Shown: positions 4,509 through 61,842, counted from the stretch's first letter. The stretch is 61,842 bases of DNA from Actinomycetes bacterium (GCA_030621865.1 JAUXGW010000001.1:1-61842); one strand, 5' to 3'. Numbers and translations: made by a program. Notes: generated from the sequence alone by a model not told the origin.

Positions 4509-6194
4509 TCAGCCCCAGATGTCAAGAACCAGGGTGGCGAAATAGGCCGCCGGGAGCACGAACAGGAGCGAATCGAAACGATCCAGCACGCCTCCGTGGG
4601 CGGGCAACAGCGTGCCCATGTCCTTGATACCCAGATCCCGCTTCACGAATGACTCACTCAGGTCACCGATAGGTGCGGCGAGAGCGCAGACGACAGCGAA
4701 CACGACAACCCTGCCGAAATTGCCGCCGATCGGAGCAATTCCCACGAGTCCGACAATGATCACCACCGCTGCCAGGGCACTGACGAAGCCACCGACCAGA
4801 CCTTCTTGTGTCTTGTTGGGACTCACCTCGGAGAGCGGCGTCCTGCCCAGGCTGCGACCGATGAAGTAACCGCCGATGTCGTAGGCCACTGCGGCGATGA
4901 TCGCTGCGATCAAGACCCCGATTCCCGGGTTCGAGTCGAGGTCGCCGGCATCCTTGAGCACGTCACCCAGACCAAGGAACAACGCGGCGAACGATGCCAT
5001 GAAACCGATCCACATCACACCCAGCAATGTGACACCGAGGCTGGAAACCGATCCTTCCCCCGGGGAAATCCAGGCGTACCAGACCAGTCCGAGCATCATC
5101 GTGACGCCAAGAACCACCGGATAGGCGGCCAACCCTGTGAGGGCGGCGCCAACCACCAGGCCGAGCACGGAAACAAGGGCGACGAGACTCGCAGGGTTGT
5201 AACCAACAGACCGCACGGCAGTGAGGTACTCGAAGGTGGCCGCCAGGACCACCACTGCGATGAGCACCATCGTGGCGATCGTCCCGAGTTTGAAACAGAT
5301 CAGAGCGACCGCAACAAGGGCGACACCGACTCCTATGGCCACCGGAAGATTGCGATCCGGCGATCCGCCCGATCCGGATGGCGGTCCCGAATCGTCTCCA
5401 CCGGAATCACGGCGGCGCCTCGGCGGAGCGGAGTCGTCACGCGGGGCGAAGTCCTCTATGGGATCCGTCTCGGAATCGAAGAAATCGATCTCGGCGTCAG
5501 GATCATTGTCCGGTCCGAGTGCTCCCAAGCCGCTGGAAGCGTCGGCCAGATCATCAAAGCTTGAATCCATGGATCTCTCACCTTCATCACGCCAGCGAGG
5601 CTGTTCGCCTGCGCTCGCAAGGGGTTCGCCATCGTCATCAACCACAACCTTCGGAACCTGACCCGTTGCGGGTTCGGTCCAGTGCGGAAGGACGAATGAT
5701 TCGTCATCTCCCGAATCAACGTCCGGCGTGGCCGGCGGCCACAGCTTCTCCGGAGGCGTCTGCTCATCTGGGGGCGTCTGCTCATCTGGGGGCATCTGCG
5801 ACTCCTGTTTGTCGATTGGCTCAGAGGCCGGCTCAGGGGCCGGCTCGGGAACTGGTTCAGGGGCAGGCTCGGGAGCCCAGTCCGGTTCGGAAGGTGGAGG
5901 TGTGAGCGGACTCGGAGGAACGATGGGAATCTTTCCGAAATGATCCGGATCCGGTGACCTGGGTGTTTCGGTGCTCGAAATCGTGATTCGCGGAAGGTCA
6001 CCCTCTGGCTCCGGAGCATCCGGGCGGTCACCGAACCTCTTGTCAAAATCCCGCCTCTTCTGGACCGCGTCATGGCGACCAGTCAGTTCCGCGGCCTCCT
6101 GGGCGCCCAGAATCCGCACACCCTCGGTGGGACCCGGTGTCTTGTCTTGCTCCGGCGTCTCATCTTCGTCCGGGGTGTCCTCATCCGATGCCAT
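4509..6194 (-). CDS. cdsA: Phosphatidate cytidylyltransferase (CdsA) with an acidic, Pro-rich N-terminal extension of about 270 aa
   Basis: The C-terminal 280 aa is polytopic and ends in the CDP-diglyceride synthase signature 'SFVKRDLGIKDMGTLLPAHGGVLDRFDS'. The N-terminal part is low complexity. Confidence 0.85.
   Translation of the reverse strand: MASDEDTPDEDETPEQDKTPGPTEGVRILGAQEAAELTGRHDAVQKRRDFDKRFGDRPDAPEPEGDLPRITISSTETPRSPDPDHFGKIPIVPPSPLTPPPSEPDWAPEPAPEPVPEPAPEPASEPIDKQESQMPPDEQTPPDEQTPPEKLWPPATPDVDSGDDESFVLPHWTEPATGQVPKVVVDDDGEPLASAGEQPRWRDEGERSMDSSFDDLADASSGLGALGPDNDPDAEIDFFDSETDPIEDFAPRDDSAPPRRRRDSGGDDSGPPSGSGGSPDRNLPVAIGVGVALVAVALICFKLGTIATMVLIAVVVLAATFEYLTAVRSVGYNPASLVALVSVLGLVVGAALTGLAAYPVVLGVTMMLGLVWYAWISPGEGSVSSLGVTLLGVMWIGFMASFAALFLGLGDVLKDAGDLDSNPGIGVLIAAIIAAVAYDIGGYFIGRSLGRTPLSEVSPNKTQEGLVGGFVSALAAVVIIVGLVGIAPIGGNFGRVVVFAVVCALAAPIGDLSESFVKRDLGIKDMGTLLPAHGGVLDRFDSLLFVLPAAYFATLVLDIWG
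5755..5790. repeat. Perfect 18-nt tandem duplication (x2, plus a 9-nt partial third copy) inside cdsA
   Basis: ggcgtctgctcatctggg occurs at 5755-5772 and again at 5773-5790, then ggcatctgc. Encodes PPDEQT-PPDEQT-PPE in frame. Confidence 0.9.
5827..5874. repeat. 12-nt periodic repeat (x4) inside cdsA
   Basis: gccggctcaggg / gccggctcggga / actggttcaggg / gcaggctcggga. Encodes the (A/V)PEP run 'APEPAPEPVPEPAPEP'. Confidence 0.8.
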
Positions 6195-6199
6195 TGGGC

Positions 6200-6769
6200 C
6201 TAGGCCTCCATCAGTTCAGCCGTCTTGTGTTCGAGGGCTTCATCAATGGTTCCCTCGTTGCTTTTTGTGAGCCGGTCGAGCTCAGTTTCAAACCTGCGAA
6301 GTTCATCTTCGGAGACGTCACCGTCCTTTTCAAGGCTTTCAAGATCCTTGCGGGCATCGCGGCGCGCCGATCGAATCACGTTACGGCTCTCTTCGGCGCG
6401 ATTCTTGGCAAGTCTGACGAATTCTTTGCGGCGTTCCTCGGTGAGTTGAGGAAAAGCCAATCGGATTCCTGCTCCATCGTTGGAAGGATTGAGTCCCAGA
6501 TTGGCATCAATGATCGCCTTCTCGATTGCACCGATCGATGACTTGTCGAACGGACTGATCATCAACATTCGAGCGTCAGGAACCGAGAAGCTGGCGAGTT
6601 GCTGAAGTGGTGTTCTGACTCCGTAGTACTCGACGGGCAGTTTCTCCACCAGGCCAGGAGTGGCTCGACCCGTGCGGATGACCGAAAACTCGGAGCGGGC
6701 GTGCTCCACTGCATTGGCCATCCGCTCAGACGCGTCGTCAATGATCGCCTGGGCGAACTCATCACTCAT
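6200..6769 (-). CDS. frr: Ribosome recycling factor
   Basis: 189 aa, 'RTGRATPGLVE...V.YYG..TPL.Q.A' and 'P.LTEERRKE.V' motifs. pyrH-frr-cdsA order. Confidence 0.95.
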   Translation of the reverse strand: MSDEFAQAIIDDASERMANAVEHARSEFSVIRTGRATPGLVEKLPVEYYGVRTPLQQLASFSVPDARMLMISPFDKSSIGAIEKAIIDANLGLNPSNDGAGIRLAFPQLTEERRKEFVRLAKNRAEESRNVIRSARRDARKDLESLEKDGDVSEDELRRFETELDRLTKSNEGTIDEALEHKTAELMEA

Positions 6770-9365: not shown

Positions 9366-9845
9366 CTACTGCGGAATCTCAACCAGGACCGCGTGGAGGT
9401 TCACCGACAGGACATCAGCAGGATCCAGATAGATCCCGCCACGACGGAAGCCCAGATGCAGTCGGCGAGAGGCGGTTCCGATCAACTCGCCACGGGCGAC
9501 GGTGTCTCCGGCGGTGACCCTGATGATCTGCATGCCTGTGAGGCTCGACCTGATGCCGTCGCGATGTTCGATGCTGATCACTCCCCTGCCCGCAACCGGA
9601 CCTGCAAAGGCAACAACACCGGCAGCAACGGCGGTGACCGGCTGACCCAGTGTCGTGGCGTACTCCCAACCGCGGTTACCGGCACCAAAGTCCGTGGCGG
9701 GTCGCCGGAACCAGTCGGTCACGTTGGCCTCAACCGGTTCCTCGTACACCACCGCTTCGTATGGCAACTCTCCGTGTGGTGATCCTTCATGTGGTGATGG
9801 ATTGCCGACCAACAGAAGCGGCAGCAGGGCCAGAATGGCCTTCAG
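9366..9845 (-). CDS. Secreted M23/LytM-family peptidase
   Basis: 'GNRGWEY...[16 protein letters not shown]...ISIEH.DG..S....M....V..GD.V..GE.IG' LytM fold. The track starts at TTG 9812, but an in-frame signal peptide (K)[12 protein letters not shown] lies upstream and is reachable only from CTG 9845-9843. Confidence 0.8.
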
Positions 9846-10591
9846 GGTGAATCCCCGAGCCGTGCCCGCAGATGCAACAGTGCCTTGGTGTGGATCTGGC
9901 TTGCCCGGGACTCGCTCACGTCGAGCACCCGGCCGATCTCCAGCAACGTCATGCCTTCGTAGTAGTAGAGCGCCAGAACGGTCTTCTCCCGTTCCGGGAG
10001 GTGTGCCACCTCTGATGCGAGGACCTGGCGGGTTTCGGCCAACTCAAACGGACTCATCGCCGTTGGTTGGCCATCCACGATCATGTCCGCCAGGGAACCG
10101 GAGTCATCAAGGGCAGCCATGCGGACCTGGGAGATCTCCGTGAGAGCCGTGTTCAGTTGGGATTCGGTCCACTCCAGCTCAGCCGCCAACTCGTTGTCGG
10201 CGGGCGATCGGTGCAGCGTGGATTCAAGTGCCGAAATGGCCCCGTGAATCAGTCGCATCTTGTGGCGTAATGCCCGCGGCACCCAGTCGACCCGACGAAG
10301 TTCGTCGAACATCGCACCTCGAATGCGACTCATGGCGTAGTTCTCGAATCTGATTCCTCGTGGCGGCTCAAATCTTTCGATCGCCTCGATCAAGCCGAAG
10401 ATGCCGTAGCTGAGCACGTCAGCCTGCTCCACTGACGACGGAAGGTTCGCCATCAAACGACCGGCCACGAACTTGACCAGGGGTGAATACCAGATGATCA
10501 GGGCATCACGGTCCTGATTGTCTCCGGATTCCTTGAATGTCGACCACAGACGGTCGATCTCTGAAGCATCGATCTCTGAAGCGGAGTCCAT
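9842..10591 (-). CDS. whiG: Group-3 sigma factor of the FliA/WhiG type
   Basis: 249 aa. Region 2 'LIIWYSPLVKFVAGRL...DVLSYGIFGLIEAIERFEP..GIRFENYAMSRIRGAMFDELR'. Region 4 'LPEREKTVLALYYYEGMTLLEIGRVLDVSESRASQIH'. Sits next to rpsB as whiG does, as I recall, in Streptomyces. The 569-aa track ORF is an artefactual extension. Confidence 0.85.
   Translation of the reverse strand: MDSASEIDASEIDRLWSTFKESGDNQDRDALIIWYSPLVKFVAGRLMANLPSSVEQADVLSYGIFGLIEAIERFEPPRGIRFENYAMSRIRGAMFDELRRVDWVPRALRHKMRLIHGAISALESTLHRSPADNELAAELEWTESQLNTALTEISQVRMAALDDSGSLADMIVDGQPTAMSPFELAETRQVLASEVAHLPEREKTVLALYYYEGMTLLEIGRVLDVSESRASQIHTKALLHLRARLGDSP
10555..10584. repeat. 15-nt tandem duplication (x2, 14/15 identity) at codons 3-12 of the sigma gene
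   Basis: cgatctctgaagcat (10555-10569) and cgatctctgaagcgg (10570-10584). Encodes ASEID-ASEID. Confidence 0.85.
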
Positions 10592-10593
10592 GG

Positions 10594-11481
10594 TCACTTC
10601 GAACGCGGATGGGTCTCGTTGTACACCGACTGGAGCCGTTCCCGACTGACATGGGTGTAGATCTGTGTGGTCGCCAGATCGGAATGCCCGAGCAACTCCT
10701 GCACCACTCGGAGGTCTGCTCCCCCATCCAGCAGATGTGTTGCAAACGAATGCCGCAGCGCATGTGGATGGGTGGGCACCGGCGACCGGGCGTCGAGCAC
10801 CCGCCGAACGTCGCGCGTTGTCACTGGATTGCCGCGCATGTTCATGAACAGCGTGTCTGCGCCCGAGTTCGTTCCGCCCATGAATTCGAAACGGGCGGAC
10901 CCCAACCACAACCCGAGTGTGCTCCGGGCCGGATCCGACATGGGAACAACCCGTTGCTTGGAACCCTTGCCCCATACGGTGAGCCGTCCCTGACGAAGAT
11001 CCACGTCCGAGGGAACGAGCTTGCAGAGTTCCGACACCCGAAGCCCCGATCCGTAGAGCAGTTCCAGGATCGCGGCGTCCCTCACGCGTTTCGGCTCCCA
11101 CTCCCCGGTGTCGGCGGGTTCGTCGAGCATCTGATGCAGTTCGTCGGCGCGCAGCACTTCCGGGAGCTTCGAGGGACCTGACGGCGAGCGCAGCGCCACC
11201 GAAGGATCCGAGTCGATCAGACCGCGCCGCTGGGCCCATCCGAAGTACCGTCGCAGCGAGGATGCCGAGCGAGACATGGTTCTGGCCGCCAGACCCAAGG
11301 TCTTCAGATAGGCCAGGTAACGACGGAGCACGGCCAGGTCGACCTGACTCGGCGAAGTGATGCTCCCTCGACCACACCACTCCTCGAACCGCCTGAGATC
11401 TCCCTGATACGCGTTCACCGTGCTCGCTGCCAATGCGAGCGAATCGGTGAATTTTTGGAATTCCCAGTCTGGAGCTGTCAC
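10594..11481 (-). CDS. xerC: Tyrosine recombinase XerC/XerD family
   Basis: 295 aa. N-terminal SAM-like domain, C-terminal 'HALRHSFATHLL..GADLR.VQELLGH....TTQIYTHV'. GTG start verified. Its stop lies 2 nt before the sigma ATG. Confidence 0.9.
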   Translation of the reverse strand: MTAPDWEFQKFTDSLALAASTVNAYQGDLRRFEEWCGRGSITSPSQVDLAVLRRYLAYLKTLGLAARTMSRSASSLRRYFGWAQRRGLIDSDPSVALRSPSGPSKLPEVLRADELHQMLDEPADTGEWEPKRVRDAAILELLYGSGLRVSELCKLVPSDVDLRQGRLTVWGKGSKQRVVPMSDPARSTLGLWLGSARFEFMGGTNSGADTLFMNMRGNPVTTRDVRRVLDARSPVPTHPHALRHSFATHLLDGGADLRVVQELLGHSDLATTQIYTHVSRERLQSVYNETHPRSK

Positions 11482-11547
11482 GGGTGATCCTGAACGTGAA
11501 TGACAAGCCTCGCAGATTGAGGCTCCTCACGGGGGAATCTCTGCCGG

Positions 11548-12675
11548 TCATCGGGTCGCCTCTATCCAGCCATCACGGTTCCGGGCGATCCTGGCTCGCT
11601 CCAGTTCTCCTGCTGCCGCAGCAATTCTGGCGAAGTCCATTCCCGTGGCTGACATCGCCGAGTCGAAAGCGAGTGGGGCTTCCATCAGTTGGTCCAGCAG
11701 CAGCCGGGCGTCAGTCGACAACGCGTCCTCAGCCGAATGCGTGCCAGTGGAAAGGGGATCGGGGGAAAGGGATTTCGTGTCGCTGGTTTCGGGTGCCACC
11801 AAACCCAGAAGGCTCAGCACGTCGGCCGCACCTGTGCACATGTGCGCGCCGTCACGAAGCAACTCCAGGCAGCCGGCCGAGGCTCTACGGTTGAGGGGAC
11901 CCGGCACCGCCATCACCTCAACACCGCGCTGCAAGGCCTCGCTGACGGTGAGCATCGAGCCGCCGGCAGGAGCCGACTCGATCACCACGACAACATCGGC
12001 AACTGCGGCGATGATCCGATTTCTGGCCGGATACCTCCAGGGCGCAGACGAGGTGCCCGGGGGAATCTCGGACCAGATCGCTCCGCGGTCCCGGACCTCC
12101 GAGGCGATTGCACGATTCCGGGCTGGACAAGGTCGGTGATGTCCCGCGCCCAGTATCGCGAGCGGCGCAGCGTGCCCGCACAGAGCACCACGGTGTGCGG
12201 CCGCATCGATTCCAAGCGCGAGACCGGAGACAACCGACACGCCGGCTTCGGACAGTTCCGCTCCAAGTGCCTCTGCAATGCCGAGACCGTACGGTGTGGC
12301 TTTGCGAGTTCCGACGATCGCAACCGTGGGTGTTTCCGGAGTCGGAAACTCATTGGCGAGTCCGCCCTGCACGAACAAAACCGACGGCGTGTCCACGCTG
12401 TTGCGCAGACGTTCCGGTATCTGTTGAACGGACAGTACCGCCACCTCCAGGCGTTCGAGCCTCTCTGTCATCAGTTCAGGTGGCGACTTCCGCGCCTGTT
12501 CCTTCCATCGGTCGGCGAAGTCCCGGAAGTCCCGCAACGATCCCGAGACGATGCGGGACCAGGTTTCCACCGGGTCTCCAAGTTCAGCGAACCGTTGCAG
12601 TCGGGCGGGACCCACTCCCTCCAACGCAGCCAGGGCGGCCCAGTGAACTCCGCTGATGTCGTTAAGGGGTTTCAT
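11548..12675 (-). CDS. dprA: DNA processing protein DprA (Smf)
   Basis: 'VAIVGTRKATPYG...A..L...GV.VVSGLALGIDAAAHRGAL'. Start taken at ATG 12675 (MKPLNDISGVHW), after the yifB stop. Confidence 0.9.
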   Translation of the reverse strand: MKPLNDISGVHWAALAALEGVGPARLQRFAELGDPVETWSRIVSGSLRDFRDFADRWKEQARKSPPELMTERLERLEVAVLSVQQIPERLRNSVDTPSVLFVQGGLANEFPTPETPTVAIVGTRKATPYGLGIAEALGAELSEAGVSVVSGLALGIDAAAHRGALCGHAAPLAILGAGHHRPCPARNRAIASEVRDRGAIWSEIPPGTSSAPWRYPARNRIIAAVADVVVVIESAPAGGSMLTVSEALQRGVEVMAVPGPLNRRASAGCLELLRDGAHMCTGAADVLSLLGLVAPETSDTKSLSPDPLSTGTHSAEDALSTDARLLLDQLMEAPLAFDSAMSATGMDFARIAAAAGELERARIARNRDGWIEATR

Positions 12676-12714
12676 GTGGTTGAGGGCTTCATGTGGTTGA
12701 GGGGTTTCATGTGA
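12666..12714. repeat. Triplicated 17-18 nt unit spanning the yifB stop and dprA start
   Basis: Plus strand: ggggtttcatgtggttga (12666-12683), gggcttcatgtggttga (12684-12700), ggggtttcatgtga (12701-12714). On the coding strand each copy carries ACATGA. Confidence 0.9.
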
Positions 12715-19099: not shown

Positions 19100-19753
19100 A
19101 TGGAACAACTTGTTCTCGATATCTGGTCCGATGTGATCTGTCCGTGGTGCTACCTCGGACATGTCCGTCTCAAGGAAGCCATCGAGATCACGGGGCTGGG
19201 TGATGAGGTGTCCCTGCGGTGGCGGGCGTTCCAGCTGGATCCCCGGGCCACTTCGACGCCGGGCGACTTGCGGCAGGCGATCGAGCAGAAATACGGCCCG
19301 GGAGCCTTCGATGCGATGGCCACCCGACTGGATCAACTGGGGACCGAAGCCGGAATCAACTACCGGTTCGATCTCGCCCAGCGAGTCGGGACCATGGACG
19401 CACATCGCCTGATCCAGTGGGCACAGAACGAATCCGATCCACCTGACGCTCTCGTTGATCGCCTGTTCCGGGCTTACTTCACCGAAGGTGCCAACATCGC
19501 GGATCGCCATGACCTGGCCGACCTGGCCCAGGACGCGGGGCTGGACCGGGCCGGGGCTGTGGCAATGCTCGCCGGTGACGAGTACCGCGAGATCGTGGTG
19601 AACGACCATCAAGAAGCAATCGAGAACGGCATCACAGGTGTTCCAGCCCTGTTGTTCAGGGGCGCACTGATCATTCCGGGTGCCCAGGATGTGGACACCA
19701 TGGCCAGGATCCTCACCCGGGTCCACTCCAAGGTGACGACCGCGGTCCCCTGA
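19100..19753 (+). CDS. DsbA/FrnE-family thiol-disulfide oxidoreductase
   Basis: 'DIWSDVICPWCYLG' CxxC at the N-terminus, '..GVPA..F'. Start taken at the internal ATG 19100. Confidence 0.8.
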   Translation: MEQLVLDIWSDVICPWCYLGHVRLKEAIEITGLGDEVSLRWRAFQLDPRATSTPGDLRQAIEQKYGPGAFDAMATRLDQLGTEAGINYRFDLAQRVGTMDAHRLIQWAQNESDPPDALVDRLFRAYFTEGANIADRHDLADLAQDAGLDRAGAVAMLAGDEYREIVVNDHQEAIENGITGVPALLFRGALIIPGAQDVDTMARILTRVHSKVTTAVP

Positions 19754-19772
19754 ATCCGCGGTCCCCTGAATC
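19741..19772. repeat. Perfect 16-nt tandem duplication (x2) containing both stop codons of a convergent gene pair
   Basis: cgcggtcccctgaatc occurs at 19741-19756 and 19757-19772. The DsbA-like TGA is at 19751-19753. The MOSC stop (complement) is at 19771-19773. Confidence 0.95.
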
Positions 19773-20634
19773 AGGGCAGGATCCGCAGAGGGTCGCCCGC
19801 CTGTATGTCTCCCGGAACCAGCACCCATGCATAGGCACGCGCGCGGCCCGGATGCAGATCAAAGTCGAGGTGCCTGAACGACCCGTCGGAGAACGAACCC
19901 AGAATGTTCGTGCACGGCGGTGCCCACGAAGTGATTTCGAGAACCACAGGATCGTCGTTGTCCCCGATGACCAGTCGGGTCCCGGGTCTGATTCCAGACC
20001 AGTCGATGCCGCTCACGGTCAGATTCTCCCCGACCGACCCGGCGGTGATCGGATGGCCCTCGGAGCGGAGTTCTGAAATCACCTCGGCCGAGAACAGACA
20101 CACGGCCTGGAAGGGCCGACCGTGATGTCGGCGGGTCTTCTGCGTGTCATCTTCAAGGCCGCGGGCTCCGATGGAGGCGGAATCCGCGGACTTTTTGGGC
20201 ACTCCTCCGTCCGACACACCGATTCGATCCAGAATTCCGGTCTGTGGATGTGAGAAATGCCCGGCCACCGCCCGCCCGGCAGCAGACAGGAGGCTGTCGG
20301 TGGATTCCACGGCGAGGGCGAGCGGATCATCTGCGCCGAGAACTTCCACCATGTTCGTGCGAGCGCCGTGTTGGCGCACGAGGTTCCTGAGCTCCATCTC
20401 CGGGCCCAGCGCGAGCTCACCCAGATCGGTGCCTGTGCCGCCGGCGGACAGCAGCCCTTCGGACAGGTGCTCCAGCGCAATCAGGGCACCGCCGGGGATT
20501 TCTTCCAGGCCGTACATGATCCAGCGCCATCGATGAGGGATTCCACCGACCGTTCCGGCGGCGTCCTCCAGGTCAAAGATCGACGGATCAACCTTCAGGG
20601 GCAACGCCTTGAGTTCTGCGTTCGAGACCGTCAC
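19771..20634 (-). CDS. MOSC-domain protein with an uncharacterised N-terminal domain
   Basis: C-terminal 'GENLTVSGIDWSGIRPGTRL.IG....LEIT....PC' MOSC beta-barrel. GTG 20634 overlaps the SDR stop (GTGA). Confidence 0.7.
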   Translation of the reverse strand: MTVSNAELKALPLKVDPSIFDLEDAAGTVGGIPHRWRWIMYGLEEIPGGALIALEHLSEGLLSAGGTGTDLGELALGPEMELRNLVRQHGARTNMVEVLGADDPLALAVESTDSLLSAAGRAVAGHFSHPQTGILDRIGVSDGGVPKKSADSASIGARGLEDDTQKTRRHHGRPFQAVCLFSAEVISELRSEGHPITAGSVGENLTVSGIDWSGIRPGTRLVIGDNDDPVVLEITSWAPPCTNILGSFSDGSFRHLDFDLHPGRARAYAWVLVPGDIQAGDPLRILP

Positions 20635-21547: not shown

Positions 21548-22660
21548 CTAGGCGTCGAACAACGCTGCCACGAATTCCTCCGGATCGAAGTCCACCAGGT
21601 CGACCGCTGCCTCGCCGAGACCCACGAGCTTCACCGGCAGATCGAGTTCAGAGCGGATGGCAAACACGATTCCGCCCTTGGCAGACCCGTCGAGTTTGGT
21701 GAGCACCACACCCGTCACATCTGTGGCTTCAGCGAACTGGCGGGCCTGGATGAGGCCGTTCTGGCCGGTGGTGGCATCCATGACAAGCAGGACCTCGACC
21801 ACGGAGCCGGCGCCGCGGTCGGCCACACGTCTTACTTTGGAGAGTTCATCCATCAGGTTGCTCTTGGTGTGCAGACGCCCCGCGGTATCCGCGAGCACGT
21901 AGTCGGTGTCGCGGGCACCAGCCGCTTCCACGGCGTCGAATATCACGGACGAGGGATCCCCGCCCTCGCTTCCCCGGATCATCGTCGCACCGCAGCGCTG
22001 GGCCCAGGTGTCGAGTTGTTCGGCCGCGGCCGCCCGGAATGTGTCACCGGCCGCCATCACGATGGTGTTCCCCTCGCCGGCGAGACGGTGACCCAACTTG
22101 CCGATCGTGGTGGTCTTGCCCACTCCGTTCACACCCACGATCAGCCAGATGCTGGGCCCGTCGGGACTCGTGTTGAGCGGCGGCACATCACCCAGACGGC
22201 TGACCAGCTCGGACTTGAGTGATTCCATCAGTTCTTCCGATGTGGTCAGCTTCTCCGACTTCACCTGGGCCCGAACCGCATCGAGGACCTCCTGGGTGGA
22301 TCCGATTCCCAGGTCGGCAAGAATCAGGGCTTCCTCCAACTCCTCGTATGACGCTTCGGTGATCTCCGATCGGGACAGGACAGAACCGACATAACCGGAC
22401 AGGGCCGAGCGGGCTTTGCCCAGTCGGTCCCGGAAACGGGGCCGAATCAGCTCCTCGACGACCTCGGGTTCGACGACCTCGGGTGCAACTACCTCGGGTT
22501 CGGCGACCTCGGGTTCAAGCACCCCGGTTTCAACCGGCGGTTCCTCGATCAGCGTTTCGGAATCCTGATCCACGCTCCTTTGGGAAACGAAGAACACACC
22601 AGCGCCGATTACCAGCGCCAGCATGAGCAGTGTGACCAACAAGATGATGAGGAGCTCCAT
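21548..22660 (-). CDS. ftsY: SRP receptor FtsY with an N-terminal TM anchor and an acidic EPEVV repeat linker
   Basis: 'VGVNGVGKTTTIGKL', 'DTAGRLH', 'TKLDGSAKGG'. ATG 22660 (MELLIILLV...) verified. Confidence 0.95.
   Translation of the reverse strand: MELLIILLVTLLMLALVIGAGVFFVSQRSVDQDSETLIEEPPVETGVLEPEVAEPEVVAPEVVEPEVVEELIRPRFRDRLGKARSALSGYVGSVLSRSEITEASYEELEEALILADLGIGSTQEVLDAVRAQVKSEKLTTSEELMESLKSELVSRLGDVPPLNTSPDGPSIWLIVGVNGVGKTTTIGKLGHRLAGEGNTIVMAAGDTFRAAAAEQLDTWAQRCGATMIRGSEGGDPSSVIFDAVEAAGARDTDYVLADTAGRLHTKSNLMDELSKVRRVADRGAGSVVEVLLVMDATTGQNGLIQARQFAEATDVTGVVLTKLDGSAKGGIVFAIRSELDLPVKLVGLGEAAVDLVDFDPEEFVAALFDA
22457..22531. repeat. 15-nt tandem repeat (x5, degenerate) inside ftsY
   Basis: gacgacctcgggttc / gacgacctcgggtgc / aactacctcgggttc / ggcgacctcgggttc / aagcaccccggtttc. 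Encodes 'LEPEVAEPEVVAPEVVEPEVVE'. Confidence 0.85.
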
Positions 22661-31165: not shown

Positions 31166-31197
31166 TTTCAGTGAACTCTCCTCGGGAGGGCCGACCT

Positions 31198-45135: not shown

Positions 45136-45175
45136 ACTCAGCCGACCAGCATGGCTGTACTCAGCCGACCAGCAT
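45136..45175. repeat. 17-nt direct duplication (6-nt spacer) of the 3' end plus stop of the small membrane-protein gene
   Basis: actcagccgaccagcat occurs at 45136-45152 and 45159-45175. The real stop (complement) is at 45161-45163. Offset 23 nt. Confidence 0.9.
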
Positions 45176-45526
45176 CGCCCGGATTCCCAAACCCATCAGG
45201 AACAAGCCCCCGAACCCGTACAGGAGGTATTGCCATGCCCGAATCTGGAATCGGTAGCTGTAGAGAAGGGCGACCGTGATCAGAGCCACGAACCCATAGA
45301 ACATGTGGAACTGCGGGGCCTTGATGCCCTCGCCGGCGACCATGATCACCCCGAGAACCACTTGCACGGCGATCGTCGTCTCGGCGAGGCCGACGAACCA
45401 CCACAGGGCCTTGACCCGCAGGGCCGGCAACCAGTGGGCTCCCAGGCACCACAATCCGGCGAGGGCGTTGGAGAAGATGACCATCCACGCCCATTCGGTG
45501 TGGAATTGAAGAACACTGGCGAACAC
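45161..45526 (-). CDS. Small polytopic membrane protein, family unknown
   Basis: About 4 hydrophobic segments ('VFASVLQFHTEWAWMVIFSNALAGLWCLG...'). GTG 45526 is placed after the PIG-L stop. Start uncertain. Confidence 0.5.
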   Translation of the reverse strand: MFASVLQFHTEWAWMVIFSNALAGLWCLGAHWLPALRVKALWWFVGLAETTIAVQVVLGVIMVAGEGIKAPQFHMFYGFVALITVALLYSYRFQIRAWQYLLYGFGGLFLMGLGIRAMLVG

Positions 45527-49826: not shown

Positions 49827-50693
49827 ATGACCGAACGCCTCACCGAAACGGACAAGCGAGTCGACTCACTCACCGGCGCCGAGTCGGTGATGGTGCCCAC
49901 ACGGCAAGTGCGGCCCAATCTTCCCGACAGCGGCTGCCCATTTTGCCCGGGCGGGCTGGAGACTCCACGGGACTACCGCACCCTTGCGATTCCCAACCGC
50001 TGGCCGGCAATGCCCGATGATCGCTGCGAGGTACTCCTGTACACCTCTGTCCACAACAAGGCCTTCTGGCAACTGGGTACCTCCCAGGTGTTGCATGTGG
50101 TCGACCTCTGGACAGACCGCAGCCGAGTTCTGGGAGCCCGGCCCGATGTGGATTACGTGCTCATATTCGAGAATCGCGGCCGGTTGTCCGGCACCACGAT
50201 CGATCATCCCCACGGCCAGTTGTACGCGCTGGCGGAGACACCCGCGGAACCACTGAACGAATTGGTCAATGGCTACATGCCCTCACCTCCGCCCGACCTC
50301 ATCGTGAGCGAGGACCGCAACTGGCAGGCATGGGTCCCCGAGGCAGCCAAATGGCCATTCGAACTCCTCATCGCCACCAACGACGGAAGCCGGCGACTGT
50401 CCGACGCGGGCATGGATCGTGTGGGTCTGGCCAACATTCTCGTGGATTGCCTGGCCCGACTCGACCAGGTGTTCGACCAACCGATGCCGTACATGATGTG
50501 GATTCACCAGCGGCCCTTCACCGACGAGGCATTCGCCCCGATGCCGCTGCACATACACATCGCCGGAATGCTGCGGAGCGCGCACACACAACGATTCATG
50601 GCTGCAGCCGAGGTTGGAGGTGGCCTCTACTTCAACACCGTGGATCCGGCGCTGGCTGCGAGGAAGCTGTCCGACCTTGCGGGACACCGATGA
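49827..50693 (+). CDS. galT: Galactose-1-phosphate uridylyltransferase
   Basis: 'CPFCPG' zinc site and 'DHPHGQLYA' HxHxQ active site. ATG 49827 verified. Confidence 0.9.
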   Translation: MTERLTETDKRVDSLTGAESVMVPTRQVRPNLPDSGCPFCPGGLETPRDYRTLAIPNRWPAMPDDRCEVLLYTSVHNKAFWQLGTSQVLHVVDLWTDRSRVLGARPDVDYVLIFENRGRLSGTTIDHPHGQLYALAETPAEPLNELVNGYMPSPPPDLIVSEDRNWQAWVPEAAKWPFELLIATNDGSRRLSDAGMDRVGLANILVDCLARLDQVFDQPMPYMMWIHQRPFTDEAFAPMPLHIHIAGMLRSAHTQRFMAAAEVGGGLYFNTVDPALAARKLSDLAGHR

Positions 50694-51727
50694 AGATCTG
50701 GGCGCCAGGGCGGGTCAACCTGATCGGCGACCACGTGGACTACATGGGCGGCCACGTGTTGCCCATGGCCATTCAGCTCGGTCTGACGCTCGAAGCGGAC
50801 CGGGTAGGGCGCGGGATTCACCTCACGTCTGATCGCGAGAACGAACCGGCGGTTTTCGGCGAAGCTGCGGTGGACCCCTCAGTGCTGCAACCGCCCTGGG
50901 CCCGCCTCGTGGCGGCCGTGGCCAACGAAGTGGCACATGAAGCCAACGAAGTCGCAGACGAAAAGGGCCCGATCGCCCTGACGGGCCGGATTTCCTCTTC
51001 GCTGCCGGTCGGAGCCGGATTGTCCTCCAGCGCCGCGCTTTGTGTTGCGGTTGCATTGGCGCTGCGGCCCAGCTTCGGCAATGGCACGCCGGGATCACAA
51101 CTGGCCCTGGCGGAACTGGCACAACGCGCTGAGCACGCTGCCACCGACGTGCCATGCGGAATCATGGATCAACTCGCCATCACCGCCGCTGTCGAGGGAG
51201 CCGCCACCCTCATCGACTGCACCACCCGCGAAGTCACTGCCCTTGCGATTCCGGGCGATTGGAGCATCTGGGTGATCGACTCCGGAACACGCAGGGACCT
51301 GCGTGACTCCGAATACGCCGATCGCCGCCGACAAGCAGAGGCTGCGGCAGCGCTTGTGGGGCCACTGCCGGATGCCACCGCTGCCGACATCACAGCTATC
51401 AACGACCCCACGATTCGGCGACGGGCAAGGCATGTGCATGCCGAGTCCCGGCGGGTACTCGACTTCGCCGGGGCCATGACGGCGGGCGATGCACGGGTGG
51501 CCGGAGAACTCATGGACGAAAGCCATCGGTCACTTCGCGACGATTTCGAGGTGTCGATTCCGGCGCTCGACGACCTCTGCGAGGAGCTGCGTTCGATGCC
51601 TGGCGTGCACGGCGCTCGCCTCACTGGTGCCGGATTCGGAGGTTGCGTGGTGGCCCTCGCGGATGAGGGCGCAGAAGTCCCGGGAACGCGCCTGATTCCC
51701 TCGGGACCGGCCTGCCTCCGGCAGTGA
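50690..51727 (+). CDS. galK: Galactokinase
   Basis: 'APGRVNLIGDHVDYMGG' signature, 'PVGAGLSSSAAL' GHMP motif, 'GARLTGAGFGGC'. ATGA overlap with galT. Confidence 0.93.
   Translation: MKIWAPGRVNLIGDHVDYMGGHVLPMAIQLGLTLEADRVGRGIHLTSDRENEPAVFGEAAVDPSVLQPPWARLVAAVANEVAHEANEVADEKGPIALTGRISSSLPVGAGLSSSAALCVAVALALRPSFGNGTPGSQLALAELAQRAEHAATDVPCGIMDQLAITAAVEGAATLIDCTTREVTALAIPGDWSIWVIDSGTRRDLRDSEYADRRRQAEAAAALVGPLPDATAADITAINDPTIRRRARHVHAESRRVLDFAGAMTAGDARVAGELMDESHRSLRDDFEVSIPALDDLCEELRSMPGVHGARLTGAGFGGCVVALADEGAEVPGTRLIPSGPACLRQ
50921..50962. repeat. 21-nt in-frame tandem duplication (x2, 18/21) inside galK
   Basis: gccaacgaagtggcacatgaa and gccaacgaagtcgcagacgaa. Encodes ANEVAHE-ANEVADE. Confidence 0.8.
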
Positions 51728-51739: not shown

Positions 51740-51784
51740 TCCGCAGAAGTTGAGTCCGCAGAAGCTGGGCCCGCAGAAGTCCGG
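51740..51784. repeat. 15-nt tandem repeat (x3) filling most of the galK / PH-SHOCT convergent intergenic gap
   Basis: tccgcagaagttgag / tccgcagaagctggg / cccgcagaagtccgg. Confidence 0.85.
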
Positions 51785-52455: not shown

Positions 52456-54453
52456 ATGTCTCAGGGCGCTGATAGGTTCGCCACGATGAGCGGCATGGAT
52501 CAAGACCCCGGCGGCGATTCGCCATCCAGACTCCTGACCGGACTCAACGAAGCCCAGCGGGAGGCGGTCACCTCGGACTCCGATCCGCTGCGGATCCTGG
52601 CTGGCGCCGGATCCGGGAAGACCCGCGTGCTGACTCAGCGGATCGCCTGGCGGGCTGCCAACGGGGCGGAGGATCCCAACAAGGTTCTCGCAGTGACATT
52701 CACGCGCAAGGCTGCCTCCGAACTCAGGGATCGGCTCTGGAAACTCGGGCTGAGCGAGGGCGTTCGGGCTGGAACCTTCCACGCCATCGCCCATGCACAA
52801 CTTCGTCAACGCTGGGAAGAACGCGGTGTGCAACCCGCGGAGTTGCTGGAACGAAAGTACACCTTCGTTTCGCGACTCATGAGGACACGTAGTTCCACAC
52901 TTCCCCTCGACGTGATCGGTGAGATCGAGTGGGCTGCCGCTCGAATGATCACACCCGAGGATTACGAGAACGCGGCCGAACGCGCCCAGCGAACTCCTCC
53001 GATGGACCTGTCGAAGGTGGCGGCGACATATGAGCAATACCAGCAGGCAAAACTCAAGAAGCGCCTGGTGGACTTCGATGACATACTCCGCCTCGCTGCC
53101 CGTGACCTCATGGGCGATCCTGTCTACGCGAGTGCACGGCGCTGGCGATACCGCCACCTCTATGTCGACGAATTCCAGGACGTGAACCCACTTCAGCATC
53201 ACCTCCTGAGTCTCTGGATGGGCACCGAGTCCACGTTCTGCGCCGTCGGGGATCCCAATCAGGCGATCTACGCCTGGAACGGAGCCAACTCCGACTATCT
53301 CGTGAACTTCGAGAAGCACTTCGGAGGCTCAGCGACTGTTGAACTCACCAGGAACTACCGCTCCACCCCCGAGATACTGACTGCCGCAAACGCGGTGCTC
53401 GCCGGCTCCCCGGCCACACCATTTCGTCTTTCCGCCACCCGTCCATCCGGGCCGGCAGCCGAGATCCGGTCCCACGCCGACGAAGTCGCCGAAGCAAAGG
53501 CGATCGCTCGTGCCTGCAGAGTCAAACACCGACCCAACACCGCGTGGCGCGCCCAGGCAGTGTTGGTTCGCACCAACTCCCAGTCAGCTGCGATCGCCGA
53601 GGCGCTGTCGGATGCCGGAATCCCCCACCGCGTTCGAGGTTCGGCCTCCCTCCTGCAACAACCCGAGGTCAAGGACGCGCTCCGGACCCTGCACCAGAGT
53701 CCGGCCGTTTCCTCCTTCATCAAGGACACCGAAGCAGTGATTCTGGATCCCACCCCGGAACTCACCGAGGACCGTCTGGCCAATCTCGCCGAACTGATCA
53801 GACTCGCCAACGAATTCCTGACGATGGAGCCGGAAGGATCACCCGAGAACTTCTCCCGCTGGCTCACCGCCGCTCTGCGCAACGATGACGGCATGGGTGG
53901 TGACGCCGTGGAAGTCACCACCTTTCACGCAGCCAAGGGTCTTGAGTGGTCAATTGTCCACGTTGCGGGACTCGAGAACGGCCTTGTCCCGATTCATCAC
54001 GCCAAAGACGATCCGGACGCCATCGAGGAGGAACGTCGACTGCTCTACGTGGCACTCACCCGCGCCCGGGATGAGTTGAGTTGCACGTGGGCACGGAAAC
54101 GCACTTTCGGCACCCGGGCACTGAAACGCTCCCCATCACCGTGGCTCTCCGCCATCAAAGGGGTTGGCGAATCAGCCGAAGAGCCATCAGGTCGGCCCCG
54201 GAGGCGGACCAGAACTGCTGCGACCACACCTGCTGGATCGGAGCTGTTCCAATCCCTGCGGGCCTGGCGCATGAAACGGGCTCAAGCCGCCGACGTACCG
54301 GCCTTCGTGATCCTCAACGACGCCACGCTCCATGCCCTTGTCGAAACCAGGCCCCGGAAGCAGATCGATCTTCTCGACGTGGCCGGGATCGGACCGGTCA
54401 AAGCCGATCGATTCGGTGCGGAGATCCTCAACATCATCAAAGAAGCCGAGTGA
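52456..54453 (+). CDS. UvrD/PcrA-family helicase with a C-terminal HRDC domain (UvrD2-like)
   Basis: 'LAGAGSGKTRVL', 'VDEFQDVNP', 'NYRS', 'T.H.AKGLEW..V', 'EEERRLLYVALTRA'. C-terminal 'LRAWR...A....VPAFVILND.TL..L....P......L..V.GIG..K...FG' HRDC. Confidence 0.88.
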   Translation: MSQGADRFATMSGMDQDPGGDSPSRLLTGLNEAQREAVTSDSDPLRILAGAGSGKTRVLTQRIAWRAANGAEDPNKVLAVTFTRKAASELRDRLWKLGLSEGVRAGTFHAIAHAQLRQRWEERGVQPAELLERKYTFVSRLMRTRSSTLPLDVIGEIEWAAARMITPEDYENAAERAQRTPPMDLSKVAATYEQYQQAKLKKRLVDFDDILRLAARDLMGDPVYASARRWRYRHLYVDEFQDVNPLQHHLLSLWMGTESTFCAVGDPNQAIYAWNGANSDYLVNFEKHFGGSATVELTRNYRSTPEILTAANAVLAGSPATPFRLSATRPSGPAAEIRSHADEVAEAKAIARACRVKHRPNTAWRAQAVLVRTNSQSAAIAEALSDAGIPHRVRGSASLLQQPEVKDALRTLHQSPAVSSFIKDTEAVILDPTPELTEDRLANLAELIRLANEFLTMEPEGSPENFSRWLTAALRNDDGMGGDAVEVTTFHAAKGLEWSIVHVAGLENGLVPIHHAKDDPDAIEEERRLLYVALTRARDELSCTWARKRTFGTRALKRSPSPWLSAIKGVGESAEEPSGRPRRRTRTAATTPAGSELFQSLRAWRMKRAQAADVPAFVILNDATLHALVETRPRKQIDLLDVAGIGPVKADRFGAEILNIIKEAE

Positions 54454-54471
54454 ATCAAAGAAGCTGGATGA
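54436..54471. repeat. 18-nt tandem copy (15/18) of the helicase 3' end plus stop, forming the entire convergent intergenic gap
   Basis: atcaaagaagccgagtga (54436-54453) and atcaaagaagctggatga (54454-54471). The second TGA is in frame. Confidence 0.85.
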
Positions 54472-55224
54472 TCACGTGTCACGCTGCTCCAGCATGTGAG
54501 CGAATCCACCTTCACGGAACGCCACGAACAACGCCTGGGACGTCACACAAATACGATCACCGTGACGGAGTTCGGCGCTCGCCCAGATCTTCCGGCCATC
54601 CCGGGACTTCAGCCAGCCACGCATGTCCAGTCGTTCCCCCAGAGGAGTCGGACTCTTGTAGTCAACGTCGATGTGCGCAGTCATCCCCTGGGTTCCGGAC
54701 AGGGACTGGGTAGCACCAAGCAGCTCGTCGAGAACAGCTGCCACATACCCACCATGGACAAATCCGGGAGGCCCTTCGTAGGCCGGGCCGAACGTGACGT
54801 GACCCAGAATCTGCTCGTCATTGTCCGGATCGTGGCGCATCGCCAGCGGCGGGGACAGTGGATTTGCCAACCCGATCATCGGACTGTGATCGAAGAAGGC
54901 CAGCCGCTCCGGATCAATCGCCATGGCGGCTCCGGCGTTGGCCGCCTCGGCGAAACCTTCATAGGTTGCTCCAGCGGGAAACTCCGCGAACTGCCTTGCC
55001 AGCGCCTCCAGTTCATCGGCGGCTTCAGTGAGCTGCTCCACCTCGGCCGATGTGTTGACGAGGTGAGTGATGATCTCGCGGATTGCCGCTGCCAGCCGGC
55101 GGGACTCGCCACGCCTGGGTGTGAGCTCCAGGCGCTCGAAGCCCTCGATCCGAGAACTCCGTGGAGCATCTGATTCTGTTTCCTCCGGGTTCGTCCCGTT
55201 CTGCGGGTTCGAGTTGCTGCTCAC
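54472..55224 (-). CDS. PaaI-family hot-dog thioesterase with an N-terminal extension
   Basis: 'GFVHGGYVAAVLDELLG' hot-dog core. GTGA overlap with xthA. Confidence 0.7.
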   Translation of the reverse strand: MSSNSNPQNGTNPEETESDAPRSSRIEGFERLELTPRRGESRRLAAAIREIITHLVNTSAEVEQLTEAADELEALARQFAEFPAGATYEGFAEAANAGAAMAIDPERLAFFDHSPMIGLANPLSPPLAMRHDPDNDEQILGHVTFGPAYEGPPGFVHGGYVAAVLDELLGATQSLSGTQGMTAHIDVDYKSPTPLGERLDMRGWLKSRDGRKIWASAELRHGDRICVTSQALFVAFREGGFAHMLEQRDT

Positions 55225-59784: not shown

Positions 59785-60447
59785 TCAGCCATCCAGTGGT
59801 ATCCCCGTGATCTCCTCCAACTCGGCCAGGGCAACTGAGGGATCCACGACCTTGATGGTGTGCATACCCATTTCGCGTGCCGGTTTGAGGTTCACACCCA
59901 GGTCATCCAGGAACACCGATTGCCGCGGATCCACTCCGAGTTCGGTGATCGCGATCTCGTAGAACCGTCGCTCGGGTTTGCGCACTCCGACCACCGAGGA
60001 CTCGACAACCACGTCGAACAATCCCAGGAGATCACCGAAGCTCCCACCGCTCGACCAATCGGGATTACCCGATACGAAGTTGTTGGTGAGCAGGGCAATC
60101 TTGTGCGAGTCCTTCAGAGCCTCGATGGCATTCACCATCGCCGGCCGAAGCTCACCTTGCAGACAGCCAAGCACCTCCGCACCGGACAATTCGTGGCCGG
60201 CCAACGCCGCCTCCGCCTCGAACAGCTCCGCGAACTCCGCCAACCCGACGTCGGATCGCTCCAGCTGTGCCCAGGCGTTCGTATCCGGATTCGTGGCATT
60301 GATGGAGCGGATCGCGCCGTGCGGCAAACCCCTGCGAACCTCCAGATCATTGAAGGCATCAAAGGGGCTGCTGAGGATCACTCCACCGAAATCGAACAGG
60401 ACCGCGTTGGTTTCCACCAGAGAATCGTAAAGGAGTCCGCCATCCAC
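59785..60447 (-). CDS. HAD-superfamily hydrolase (subfamily IA)
   Basis: 'VLFDFGGVIL' motif I, 'LTNN' motif II, 'FLDDLG.N' motif III. Confidence 0.8.
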   Translation of the reverse strand: MDGGLLYDSLVETNAVLFDFGGVILSSPFDAFNDLEVRRGLPHGAIRSINATNPDTNAWAQLERSDVGLAEFAELFEAEAALAGHELSGAEVLGCLQGELRPAMVNAIEALKDSHKIALLTNNFVSGNPDWSSGGSFGDLLGLFDVVVESSVVGVRKPERRFYEIAITELGVDPRQSVFLDDLGVNLKPAREMGMHTIKVVDPSVALAELEEITGIPLDG

Positions 60448-60477
60448 CCTCCGCGAGGTGATTCACTTGAGTCCGAG

Positions 60478-61842
60478 ATGGACACTTCTCACCTGGTCGT
60501 AGACGGATCAAACATCGCCACTGAAGGGCGGTCCACCCCATCACTCGCGCAATTGAACGAGTCGGTCACGCAGTTCCTTGGCGAGGAACACTTCGACAAT
60601 GTGGTCGTGGTGGTGGATGCCAGCTTCCCCAATCGCATTGCAGATTCGGAGAAGGGGGAATTCGAAGAAGCGATCGTGGCGGGCGAGATTCTCACTCCTC
60701 CGGCAGGAACAATCGGGCGCGGTGACGCATTCGTGTTGACCATCGCCGAACGTTCCGGGGCCACGGTGCTGTCCAATGATTCGTTCCAGGAGTTCCACGG
60801 CGAACACCCCTGGTTGTTCGACGAGGGACGACTGATCGGCGGCAAGCCAGTTCCCGGAATCGGATGGGTGTTCACCGGCCGCATGCCGGTGAGGGGACCC
60901 AAGAGCAAACGGGCGGTTCGTGAGGCGAACGGCACTGACGGCCGGAAAAAGGCGAGCCCCGCCAAGAAAGTACCGGCAAAGAAGACACCGGCAAAGAAGA
61001 AGAGTTCCACCAAGAAGAAATCGTCCAGGAGCGAAGGTGCGAAGAAGTCGGCCGGGAAGTCACCGGCCAGGAGCGAAGAGGCCAAGGGGACTCCCTCCAG
61101 CAAGGGCCGACAGGGGCAGAAGAAGCAGGAGCGCAGGGCAACGAGTCAGCGCACGGGACCTGAGCCGACCAACAGTCCTGAAGCCTTCCTGGCGTTCATC
61201 TCCACTCACCAACCGGGCGCAGAGATCGACGGCGAAGTAGTGGAGTTCGCCTCACACGGCGCCTATGTGATGGCCGAGAGCACCCGCTGCTACGTGCCGT
61301 TGAAACTTCTCGGCTCACCACCTCCCCGCAGCGCGAAAGACGTGCTCACGATGGGTGAGGTGCGCCAATTTGTTGTGCAGGAATATGACCAACCTCGACG
61401 AGGTGTTGTTCTCCTGCCGACCGGGGTCGGACCATCCGATACCCATACCCGACAATCCGTGCCTTCTGACCAATCGGTCGGCGGCTCAGGTGTCGGATCC
61501 GACAACCACCCCGCCGAGGAGGCATCAGTGGCTACCAAGAAGAAAGCTCCAGCAAAGAAGAAGGCACCAGCCAAGAAGAAGGCAACCGCCAAGAAGGCAA
61601 CAACCAAGAAAGCCCCGGCAAAGAAAGCACCAGCCAAGAAGAAGGCAACCGCCAAGAAAGCCACCACCAAGAAAGCCCCGGCAAAGAAGGCACCCGCCAA
61701 GAAGAAGGCACCCGCCAAGAAGAAGGCAACGGCCAAAAAGGCAGCCACCAAGAAAGCACCCGCCAAGAAAGCACCAGCCAAGAAGAAGGCAACCGCCAAG
61801 AAGAAGGCCCCGGCAAAGAAGGCACCCGCCAAGAAGGCCCCG
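60478..61842 (+). CDS. Multidomain protein: Zc3h12a/Regnase-like NYN ribonuclease, Lys-rich linker, S1/OB domain and (A/P/T)AKK histone-H1-like tail. The 3' end is cut by the window
   Basis: Hand translation from ATG 60478 is open for 455 codons to the window edge, so there is no stop and it is absent from the track. 'HLVVDGSNIA', 'VVVVVDAS', 'GRGDAFVLTIAERSGATVLSNDSFQEF', 'LFDEGRLIGG'. 'GAEIDGEVVEFASHGAYVMAE...MGEVRQFVVQEYD'. Then AKKKAPAKKKATAKK... repeats. Confidence 0.8.
   Translation, partial: MDTSHLVVDGSNIATEGRSTPSLAQLNESVTQFLGEEHFDNVVVVVDASFPNRIADSEKGEFEEAIVAGEILTPPAGTIGRGDAFVLTIAERSGATVLSNDSFQEFHGEHPWLFDEGRLIGGKPVPGIGWVFTGRMPVRGPKSKRAVREANGTDGRKKASPAKKVPAKKTPAKKKSSTKKKSSRSEGAKKSAGKSPARSEEAKGTPSSKGRQGQKKQERRATSQRTGPEPTNSPEAFLAFISTHQPGAEIDGEVVEFASHGAYVMAESTRCYVPLKLLGSPPPRSAKDVLTMGEVRQFVVQEYDQPRRGVVLLPTGVGPSDTHTRQSVPSDQSVGGSGVGSDNHPAEEASVATKKKAPAKKKAPAKKKATAKKATTKKAPAKKAPAKKKATAKKATTKKAPAKKAPAKKKAPAKKKATAKKAATKKAPAKKAPAKKKATAKKKAPAKKAPAKKAP
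61531..61842. repeat. Coding tandem repeats: about 63-nt higher-order units built from 12/15-nt gcn-ccn-gcc-aag-aag(-aag) subunits
   Basis: 61564-61626 and 61627-61689 are near-identical 63-mers (APAKKKATAKKATTKKAPAKK). The pattern continues to the window end. Confidence 0.85.

Follow-up and report, generated by a model that had tools for sequence, protein, structure and literature searches.

Short tandem duplications inside genes and across stop codons in a 62-kb Acidimicrobiia genome segment

Coding minisatellites and low-complexity linkers are familiar features of bacterial proteins, among them the repeats of the FtsY A-domain and the PAKKA-type basic tails of actinobacterial proteins. We analyzed 61,842 nt of the genome of an uncultured member of the Acidimicrobiia (GCA_030621865.1, JAUXGW010000001.1:1-61842; hereafter the window), in which short segments of 12-23 nt, about 15 in all, are duplicated head-to-tail both inside genes and at stop codons, gene junctions and spacers. 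Microhomology-mediated tandem duplication (MTD) was described in S. pombe and is reported across bacteria, archaea and fungi (bioRxiv 10.64898/2026.02.28.708716; PMC8639346). According to a 2026 preprint, such duplications expand into multi-copy repeats, Okazaki-fragment flap processing and Rad27/FEN1 are implicated in their formation, and among bacterial polymorphic duplications 25-30% are without microhomology and about 50% have at least 3 nt of it (bioRxiv 10.64898/2026.02.28.708716). The mycobacterial interspersed repetitive unit-variable number tandem repeats (MIRU-VNTR) of Actinomycetota are tandem units at gene junctions whose copy number varies between strains, with a short open reading frame (ORF) that is coupled through a -4 overlap to the gene downstream (PMC12548453).

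The phenomenon in the window is of a known kind, that of MTD-derived short tandem repeats and VNTRs. As in MTD, a local segment has been duplicated head-to-tail where the ancestral state was a single copy (five sites judged by a sister genome, and the rpmB tail in strain contig L089). Pooled junctions have an excess of microhomology of at least 3 nt, in proportions like those given for bacteria in the preprint, and copy number is reversible and can expand to several copies, as in the rpmB tail. The window differs in that its three perfect events have little microhomology. In the part of the preprint available to us we found neither a filter on period modulo 3, nor stop-spanning duplications, nor density differences between bacterial classes. 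A likeness to MIRU-VNTR exists at one site, where a mini-ORF between comM and dprA is joined by ATGA to both genes. However, MIRUs are a dispersed and apparently mobile family of related 40-100 bp units (PMC12548453), whereas the units here are 12-23 nt long, unique to their site and derived from its flank, and form no repeat family. In-frame units of 12-21 nt in disordered segments with concerted evolution (FtsY (EPEVV)n, the CdsA extension, the KKAP tail) resemble coding minisatellites. Those are usually treated as protein features, whereas duplications occur here at silent sites too, exposing a mutational origin. Searches of the literature turned up neither a paper on bacterial duplications that span stop codons nor one on tandem duplications in Acidimicrobiia.

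We consider it probable (about 0.82) that these repeats are the products of an ordinary mutational process filtered by purifying selection and are not functional motifs. A first-pass annotation of the same DNA had proposed as much, and the proposal is borne out by single copies in the sister, polymorphism at rpmB, in-frame periods inside genes and a pooled excess of microhomology.

Tandem duplications and their recent origin

Tandem Repeats Finder (TRF) was combined with an exact census, and the excess over chance was computed for positions 1-61500, leaving out a KKAP-repeat tail at the end of the window. With periods of 12-30 nt and at most one mismatch, 11 repeats were observed, compared with 0.48 in dinucleotide shuffles and 0.48 in within-gene codon shuffles. 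With periods of 14-30 nt and the same tolerance there were 7, compared with 0.03 (dinucleotide) and 0.02 (codon), and perfect tandem pairs numbered 3, compared with 0.03 and 0, respectively. The excess is at least 20-fold against both kinds of shuffle. A dinucleotide-shuffled null was the comparison suggested at first annotation, and 11 against 0.48 lies far above it. A scan at one uniform threshold gave 17 pairs in the window. The main repeats are as follows.

5755-5799, minus strand: 18-nt repeat in CdsA, 2.2-2.5 copies, two of them identical; in frame, in the N-terminal extension
5818-5877, minus strand: degenerate 12-nt units (TCAGGGGCCGGC-like) in CdsA; in frame, in the N-terminal extension
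10554-10583, minus strand: 15-nt duplication in a sigma factor gene, reading ASEID-ASEID at codons 4-13
12656-12713, minus strand: three copies (18/17/18 nt) at the comM-stop/dprA-start junction; one outermost copy holds the comM stop, the opposite one the dprA start
19740-19772, no strand assigned: perfect 16-nt duplication at the end of a DsbA-like gene, copying the last codons and TGA (gene ends at 19753)
22455-22516, minus strand: 15-nt unit, 4.1 copies, in FtsY; (EPEVV)n, in the linker that follows the N-terminal membrane anchor
31196-31227, minus strand: intergenic 15-nt duplication, with rpmF (31275-31454) on one side and an acyl carrier protein gene (30878-31147) on the other
38478-38539, plus strand: three copies (21/21/16 nt) at the end of rpmB, covering the last codons and TGA; the first copy alone is translated
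40803-40830, plus strand: weak 14-nt repeat (11/14), including TAG, at the end of the phosphoenolpyruvate carboxykinase (PEPCK) gene (39017-40816)
45136-45181, minus strand: 23-nt duplication (21/23) at the end (45161) of a small unnamed gene upstream of amt
50921-50962, plus strand: 21-nt in-frame duplication (18/21) in galK (50690-51727), reading ANEVAHE-ANEVADE
51740-51784, no strand assigned: three diverged 15-nt copies in the 57-nt convergent spacer between galK and a bPH-SHOCT-domain gene (stop 51785)
54436-54471, plus strand: 18-nt duplication (15/18, marginal score) at the end of a UvrD/HRDC helicase gene (52486-54453)
60972-61001, plus strand: 15-nt in-frame duplication (14/15) in the NYN-S1 gene, one copy reading TGKED
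61531-61842, plus strand: KKAP array with periods of 15/18/63 nt, the KKAPAKK-type basic tail of the NYN-S1 protein

The first-pass annotation had listed 14 repeats. Twelve are solid where they had been placed, the one at 54436 is marginal, and the one at 40804 is at chance level, since about 1.7% of gene ends in relatives score equally well. Our census added the 15-nt duplication at 60972, which was missing from that list, and 12-nt repeats at 17750, 44499 and 57063; a 14-nt match at 56833 is at chance level. The KKAP array is a protein-level repeat and stands in a class apart from the other duplications. The protein that carries it (59920-61842) joins an NYN (Zc3h12a-like) ribonuclease to an S1 domain, its residues 538-640 match Pfam HC2 (histone H1-like), and the window stops within its tail. 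CdsA (4509-6194, minus strand) has an N-terminal extension of about 280 residues before the cytidylyltransferase domain, with both arrays inside it. The sister CdsA (551 aa) likewise carries an N-terminal extension.

Relatives were reached by cluster look-ups: at strain level, Logan contigs from other sequencing runs with 98-99.4% nucleotide identity and, at sister level, genome GCA_020027385.1 and one Logan contig with 88-89%. BLAST split some of the alignments at gaps, and such sites were judged on explicit alignments rather than by the automatic tandem classifier. The repeats at 50921 and 51740 are reproduced exactly in strain contig L181 and the one at 54436 in L175, and the 19740 duplication is present in L180 with one single-nucleotide polymorphism. 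In all, four repeats recur exactly, and a fifth with a single base changed, in assemblies made independently from three further sequencing runs. Assembly error, against which the first-pass annotation had advised a check, is thereby excluded. Artefact or chance as a general explanation is accordingly the least credible that we considered, and for the strong repeats it is already refuted by this base-for-base reproduction and by shuffles that give 0.5 where 11 are observed. What it does account for are the matches at 40804 and 56833, and it would also fit the breaking of strain contig L090 at the rpmB array. Exact-protein look-ups returned nothing for the DsbA-like gene (tried from two start codons), the acyl carrier protein or the 45161 gene; the DsbA look-up was empty because the strain contig differs by an amino acid.

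Comparison with the sister, which had been suggested as a way to polarize the events, shows that six arrays are single-copy or shorter there. Just one copy is present in the sister at each of five sites: 10554, 12661 (where it is 35 nt shorter), 19740 (16 nt shorter), 31196 and 45136 (23 nt shorter). It is also without 36 nt (3 x 12) at 5829 in CdsA. The 31196 site is also single-copy in L174, and the 45136 site in both L173 and L174. The ancestral arrangement, as seen in the sister, is a 4-nt overlap of comM with dprA and a gap of 1 nt separating the stops of the convergent DsbA and MOSC genes. The ASEID duplication of the sigma factor was found in three strain-level proteins, while the sister is without it and reads MDS-----ASDID. 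Since the split there have been 6 clear tandem gains in the window against 0-1 in the sister over the same aligned DNA. The 12-nt repeats at 17750 and 44499 are kept in the sister with no indel, so they are not recent events. The sister does not cover the 57063 repeat, which is identical in L175, or the galK repeat at 50921.

Copy number of the rpmB tail varies even between strains: 1 in L089, 2 in L091 and 3 in the window, with flanks that are 98-99% identical. At sister level, L173 has 3 copies, including a perfect 17-nt duplication of its own, and L174 has 2. Five other sites covered at strain level are fixed in copy number. Single copies in the sister, together with the 1/2/3 series at rpmB, indicate recent mutations rather than conserved motifs. 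Logan contig L090 (SRR29278633; 3336-3551) terminates precisely at the rpmB stop codon, where the first copy finishes, and this suggests copy-number heterogeneity within that sample.

Three arrays are older than the sister split yet are turning over: the CdsA 18-mer, the FtsY 15-mer and the rpmB tail. The CdsA 18-mer array predates the split, since sister contig L172 has it too. Its copies are identical in the window and match at 13/18 in L172, and the array has been homogenized or re-duplicated in the window. In the sister the FtsY array is 6 nt longer, and its copies are closer to one another inside one genome than across the two; both this array and the CdsA one show concerted evolution. 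In the DsbA tail of L180 (1446-1556) the first copy has GCC (Ala, like the sister) and the second GTC, and the window has GTC in both, a pattern compatible with conversion between copies or with back mutation. The sister level also has duplications of its own: the perfect 17-nt rpmB tail (L173, 7361-7400), a 14-nt pair upstream of rpmB (L173, 7620-7647), a 15-nt array in the CdsA extension (L172, 18370-18411) and a 14-nt pair at yceD/rpmF (L174, 12726-12757). Both lineages thus share these hot spots.

Functional arrays would be expected to look different. If the noncoding arrays were protein-binding iterons, terminators or translational-coupling elements kept by selection, one could point to the multi-copy arrays at 12656, 38478 and 51740, to the presence of the rpmB-tail array in both window and sister, and to in-frame second stops 18 nt (54436) and 21 nt (38478) past the first. 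However, the units are unrelated in sequence between sites, each copying its own neighborhood, six arrays are missing from the sister, and a strain with a single rpmB-tail copy exists. The arrays are adjacent direct repeats, not hairpins or spacer-separated elements, and their periods and frames differ between sites. We therefore regard selected function as very unlikely. Backup stop codons were also considered and were rejected, as just two of the stop-spanning copies are in frame.

Reading frame, unchanged proteins and microhomology

Inside genes the duplications are filtered by frame. Every one of the nine credible intragenic repeats has a period divisible by 3 (P = 5e-5 at 1/3 each), as had been claimed from the shorter initial list. 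Relatives (1.4 Mb) show the filter too, with such periods in 141 of the 160 arrays that lie within called genes and in 27 of the 56 found elsewhere. Six of these repeats were examined (5755, 5818, 10554, 22455, 60972 and 50921), and they lie in N-terminal extensions or linkers or amount to extra residues.

At gene ends a different rule holds. A tandem A-X-X-B keeps both A-X and X-B, so a gene that ends or starts in X is untouched whatever the period. Proteins are left unchanged in this way at comM/dprA, DsbA, rpmB, the 45161 gene and the helicase. Positions that tolerate duplication without a change of protein make up 7.4% of the window yet hold 7 of the 17 arrays, a density about 9-fold higher. 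That six of eight arrays at stops or in spacers copy a gene's last codons with its stop was confirmed gene by gene, for comM (12707), the DsbA-like gene (19753), rpmB (38498), PEPCK (40816, weak), the 45161 gene and the UvrD/HRDC helicase (54453).

The sites differ in what the extra copies make. Between comM and dprA they make a 12-codon mini-ORF, MKPLNHMKPSTT followed by a stop, at 12672-12710 (minus strand). Its ATG overlaps the comM stop (ATGA) and its TGA overlaps the dprA start (ATGA), giving two -4 overlaps in a chain. The 19740 duplication makes a 17-nt spacer towards the convergent MOSC gene (stop 19771-19773). Four final codons, the TGA and the 8 nt that follow make up the 45136 unit. 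At 54436 the unit is the last five codons and TGA, and it makes the entire 18-nt spacer to the convergent thioesterase gene (stop 54472-54474). The 51740 copies occupy most of their spacer, and neither gene's stop is copied. At the PEPCK end the sister flank is unalignable and the neighboring genes differ.

Junctions were examined in a pool of 61 perfect two-copy duplications with a period of at least 12 from the window and 80 relatives. Microhomology was absent in 26% of these, compared with 53% expected, and was at least 3 nt long in 52%, compared with 6% expected (n = 61, P ~1e-22). CCGG flanks the rpmB unit and ATGT the comM/dprA unit; judged by eye, both are plausible arms.

A mutational process of the following kind would produce such repeats. 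A local 12-23 nt segment would be duplicated head-to-tail at replication, often between short microhomologies, by MTD or slippage, with replication slippage or flap processing as the presumed generating step. Copies once made go on to expand, contract and homogenize, and selection determines what is still seen. Inside genes the survivors are in-frame events in tolerant parts (membrane-anchor linkers, N-terminal extensions and first codons), and outside genes there is no restriction on period. Where a stop or a stop/start is duplicated, the first copy ends the upstream gene, the last copy starts the downstream one, and both proteins stay intact.

Two other sources were rejected. Transposon excision footprints or target-site duplications do not fit lengths that vary from 12 to 23 nt with no element involved. 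Loss of mismatch repair was set aside on loop size, since loops of 12-23 nt exceed the range of MutS-type repair.

Density among lineages and limits of the neutral filter

Density was expressed per 100 kb, both for near-perfect repeats (period 14-30) and for TRF repeats (score at least 50). The class was sampled at 160 Acidimicrobiia loci totaling 2.2 Mb, of which 80 were genome loci (L001-L080) and 80 metagenome loci (L092-L171).

Window: near-perfect 11.4, TRF 16.3
Sister: near-perfect 11.3
80 genome loci, Acidimicrobiia: near-perfect 5.9, TRF 12.5-15.5 (range for both locus sets)
80 metagenome loci, Acidimicrobiia: near-perfect 5.5, TRF 12.5-15.5 (range for both locus sets)
Six other bacteria, 550 kb: near-perfect 0.7, TRF 0-11

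On the strict measure the window's density is about twice the mean of the class, about four times that of G+C-matched relatives and equal to that of its sister. Within the Acidimicrobiia the near-perfect density is 1.0 at a G+C below 0.55, 2.9 at 0.60-0.65 (the class to which the window belongs) and 6.5-7.4 in the other G+C classes. The low density at low G+C may stem from lineage differences, or from a reported reliance of duplication on microhomology rich in G+C. Counts per locus are overdispersed, with a variance/mean of about 2. The window is far above chance, above the small outside baseline, and high within its class but inside the range. The first-pass annotation had read the repeats as a lineage-level signature of a high rate. 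The strict density agrees with this (11.4 against 5.5-5.9 for the class), but the TRF density, at 16.3 against 12.5-15.5, is taken as no higher. An elevated rate as a class- or genus-level tendency is therefore partly supported.

A stronger version of this idea is a truly raised input rate, in this lineage or in the Acidimicrobiia, through a mutator-like peculiarity of replication or repair such as weak 5'-flap processing during Okazaki-fragment maturation. The high density would then come from a higher input rather than from weaker removal. We regard this as possible but less probable than its absence. The gradient from the window and sister (11.4 and 11.3) through the class (5.5-5.9) to the six other bacteria (0.7) fits it, as do the overdispersion among lineages, the spread from 1.0 to 7.4 per 100 kb across G+C classes, and the 6 gains in the window against 0-1 in the sister. 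The MTD preprint, moreover, ties the process to Rad27/FEN1 (bioRxiv 10.64898/2026.02.28.708716). However, by TRF density the window is level with the class mean, and values of 10.7-11 per 100 kb are seen in two of the baseline replicons (Rhodococcus pRHL1 and the Ralstonia megaplasmid). The relatives were all sampled at comM +/- 10 kb, a region that in the window is 3 times denser than the rest, and the window itself was picked for looking repeat-rich. Differences in retention, from population size or deletion bias, would look alike.

Several observations weigh against mutation and purifying selection as a complete account. The density of the class, about 5-8 times the baseline, is measured against 550 kb from six bacteria that are mostly secondary replicons (E. 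coli, S. meliloti pSymB, Rhodococcus pRHL1, the Ralstonia megaplasmid, Thermus pTT27 and a Paracoccus plasmid). Genome density counts retained duplications and so does not separate input rate from retention. The window's own three perfect duplications have 3, 1 and 0 nt of microhomology, so the microhomology signature holds at the pooled class level and does not come from the window alone. The genes of the relatives were called with a crude caller of our own, which accounts for some of the 19 seemingly out-of-frame internal arrays. Finally, 5 of the 7 non-genic arrays span a stop, compared with 19% under uniform protein-neutral placement (P = 0.004), and the neutral filter alone may be insufficient to explain where the arrays lie. 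The earlier argument that translation ends in the first copy is correct, but by itself it leaves this 5/7 share unexplained.

One explanation for the excess is that stop-spanning duplications are favored, or arise preferentially, at the 3' ends of genes, through relief of tight spacing or at hot spots such as termination-linked structures. Gene ends with a stop-spanning array number 5 out of 57 in the window and 1 out of 41 in the sister; in relatives they number 10 of 1249, a rate (0.8%) equal to that at internal control codons. For three of the events, the genes had ancestrally been spaced by -4, 1 and apparently 0 nt, and the 35-nt insertion at comM/dprA restores the chain of ATGA overlaps. 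Set against this are the small numbers, the selection of the window for exactly such repeats and the lack of enrichment at gene ends in relatives; the mini-ORF would be in frame by chance 1 time in 3. In a genome that is about 92% coding, intergenic DNA is probably regulatory, which raises the expected stop-spanning share, and a pair with one copy under selection stays recognizable for longer. We thus find a gene-end preference unlikely. Likely contributors to the excess are the non-neutral intergenic DNA, slower decay and the way the window was selected.

Genomic setting and significance

The window has a G+C of 62% and an actinobacterial gene order. Its gene map came from a self-trained codon-usage caller with hand curation based on Pfam and on the gene calls of the sister. 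The closest relatives of its ComM, sought in a species-representative genome collection and in JGI metagenomes, belong to the Acidimicrobiia and share 63-71% amino-acid identity with it; these scans contained no close relative, the best matches being 71% in metagenomes and at best 68% in the genome collection. The gene content is as follows.

Minus strand: rpsB-tsf-pyrH-frr-cdsA, a XerC-type recombinase, the sigma factor, dprA, comM, ffh, ftsY and smc
Also in the window: GTP-dependent PEPCK, amt, galT-galK and the UvrD/HRDC helicase
Also in the window: a fused OdhA-type 2-oxoglutarate dehydrogenase and the NYN-S1 protein with its KKAP-repeat tail

Repair and recombination genes within the 62 kb are recG, the uvrD-like helicase, dprA, comM, xerC and smc, none of which is informative on a mutator. 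About 2.9 kb (40884-43698) separates the PEPCK gene from amt and holds a DUF1611-like ORF, an M20 peptidase and one further ORF. The sister genome lacks this segment, and its PEPCK and amt genes converge directly.

Some gene models needed correction. A 569-aa "sigma" ORF (9842-11551, minus strand) is an artefact, an open frame running across a XerC-type recombinase gene (10594-11481) in another frame. The true start is the ATG at 10591, and the gene (9842-10591) encodes a group-3-type sigma factor. rpmB (38283-38498) is the gene whose end lies in the 38478 array, and FtsY starts at 22660 (gene 21548-22660). High G+C makes further false long ORFs elsewhere in the window likely. Long open frames and repeated gene tails can mislead ORF calling, as with the 569-aa sigma and the doubled stops, and this is a warning for annotation.

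These data raise the question of whether the rate of short tandem duplication differs several-fold between bacterial classes, and from what cause. One hypothesis, which we consider doubtful, is that some Acidimicrobiia, including this genus-level pair, generate or retain short tandem duplications several-fold faster than other bacteria through a lagging-strand flap-processing or related step, and that stop-spanning duplications act as a protein-neutral recorder of the rate, perhaps being favored at abutting gene ends. If this were true, a census of stop-spanning duplications would offer a simple, annotation-anchored comparison of duplication rates across uncultured lineages. More generally, the window is a clear natural illustration of duplication, expansion, loss, homogenization and tolerated positions, all within one stretch of DNA. 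Its stop- and junction-spanning duplications are silent markers that can be polarized with sister genomes and, as in the rpmB tail, can serve as strain markers.

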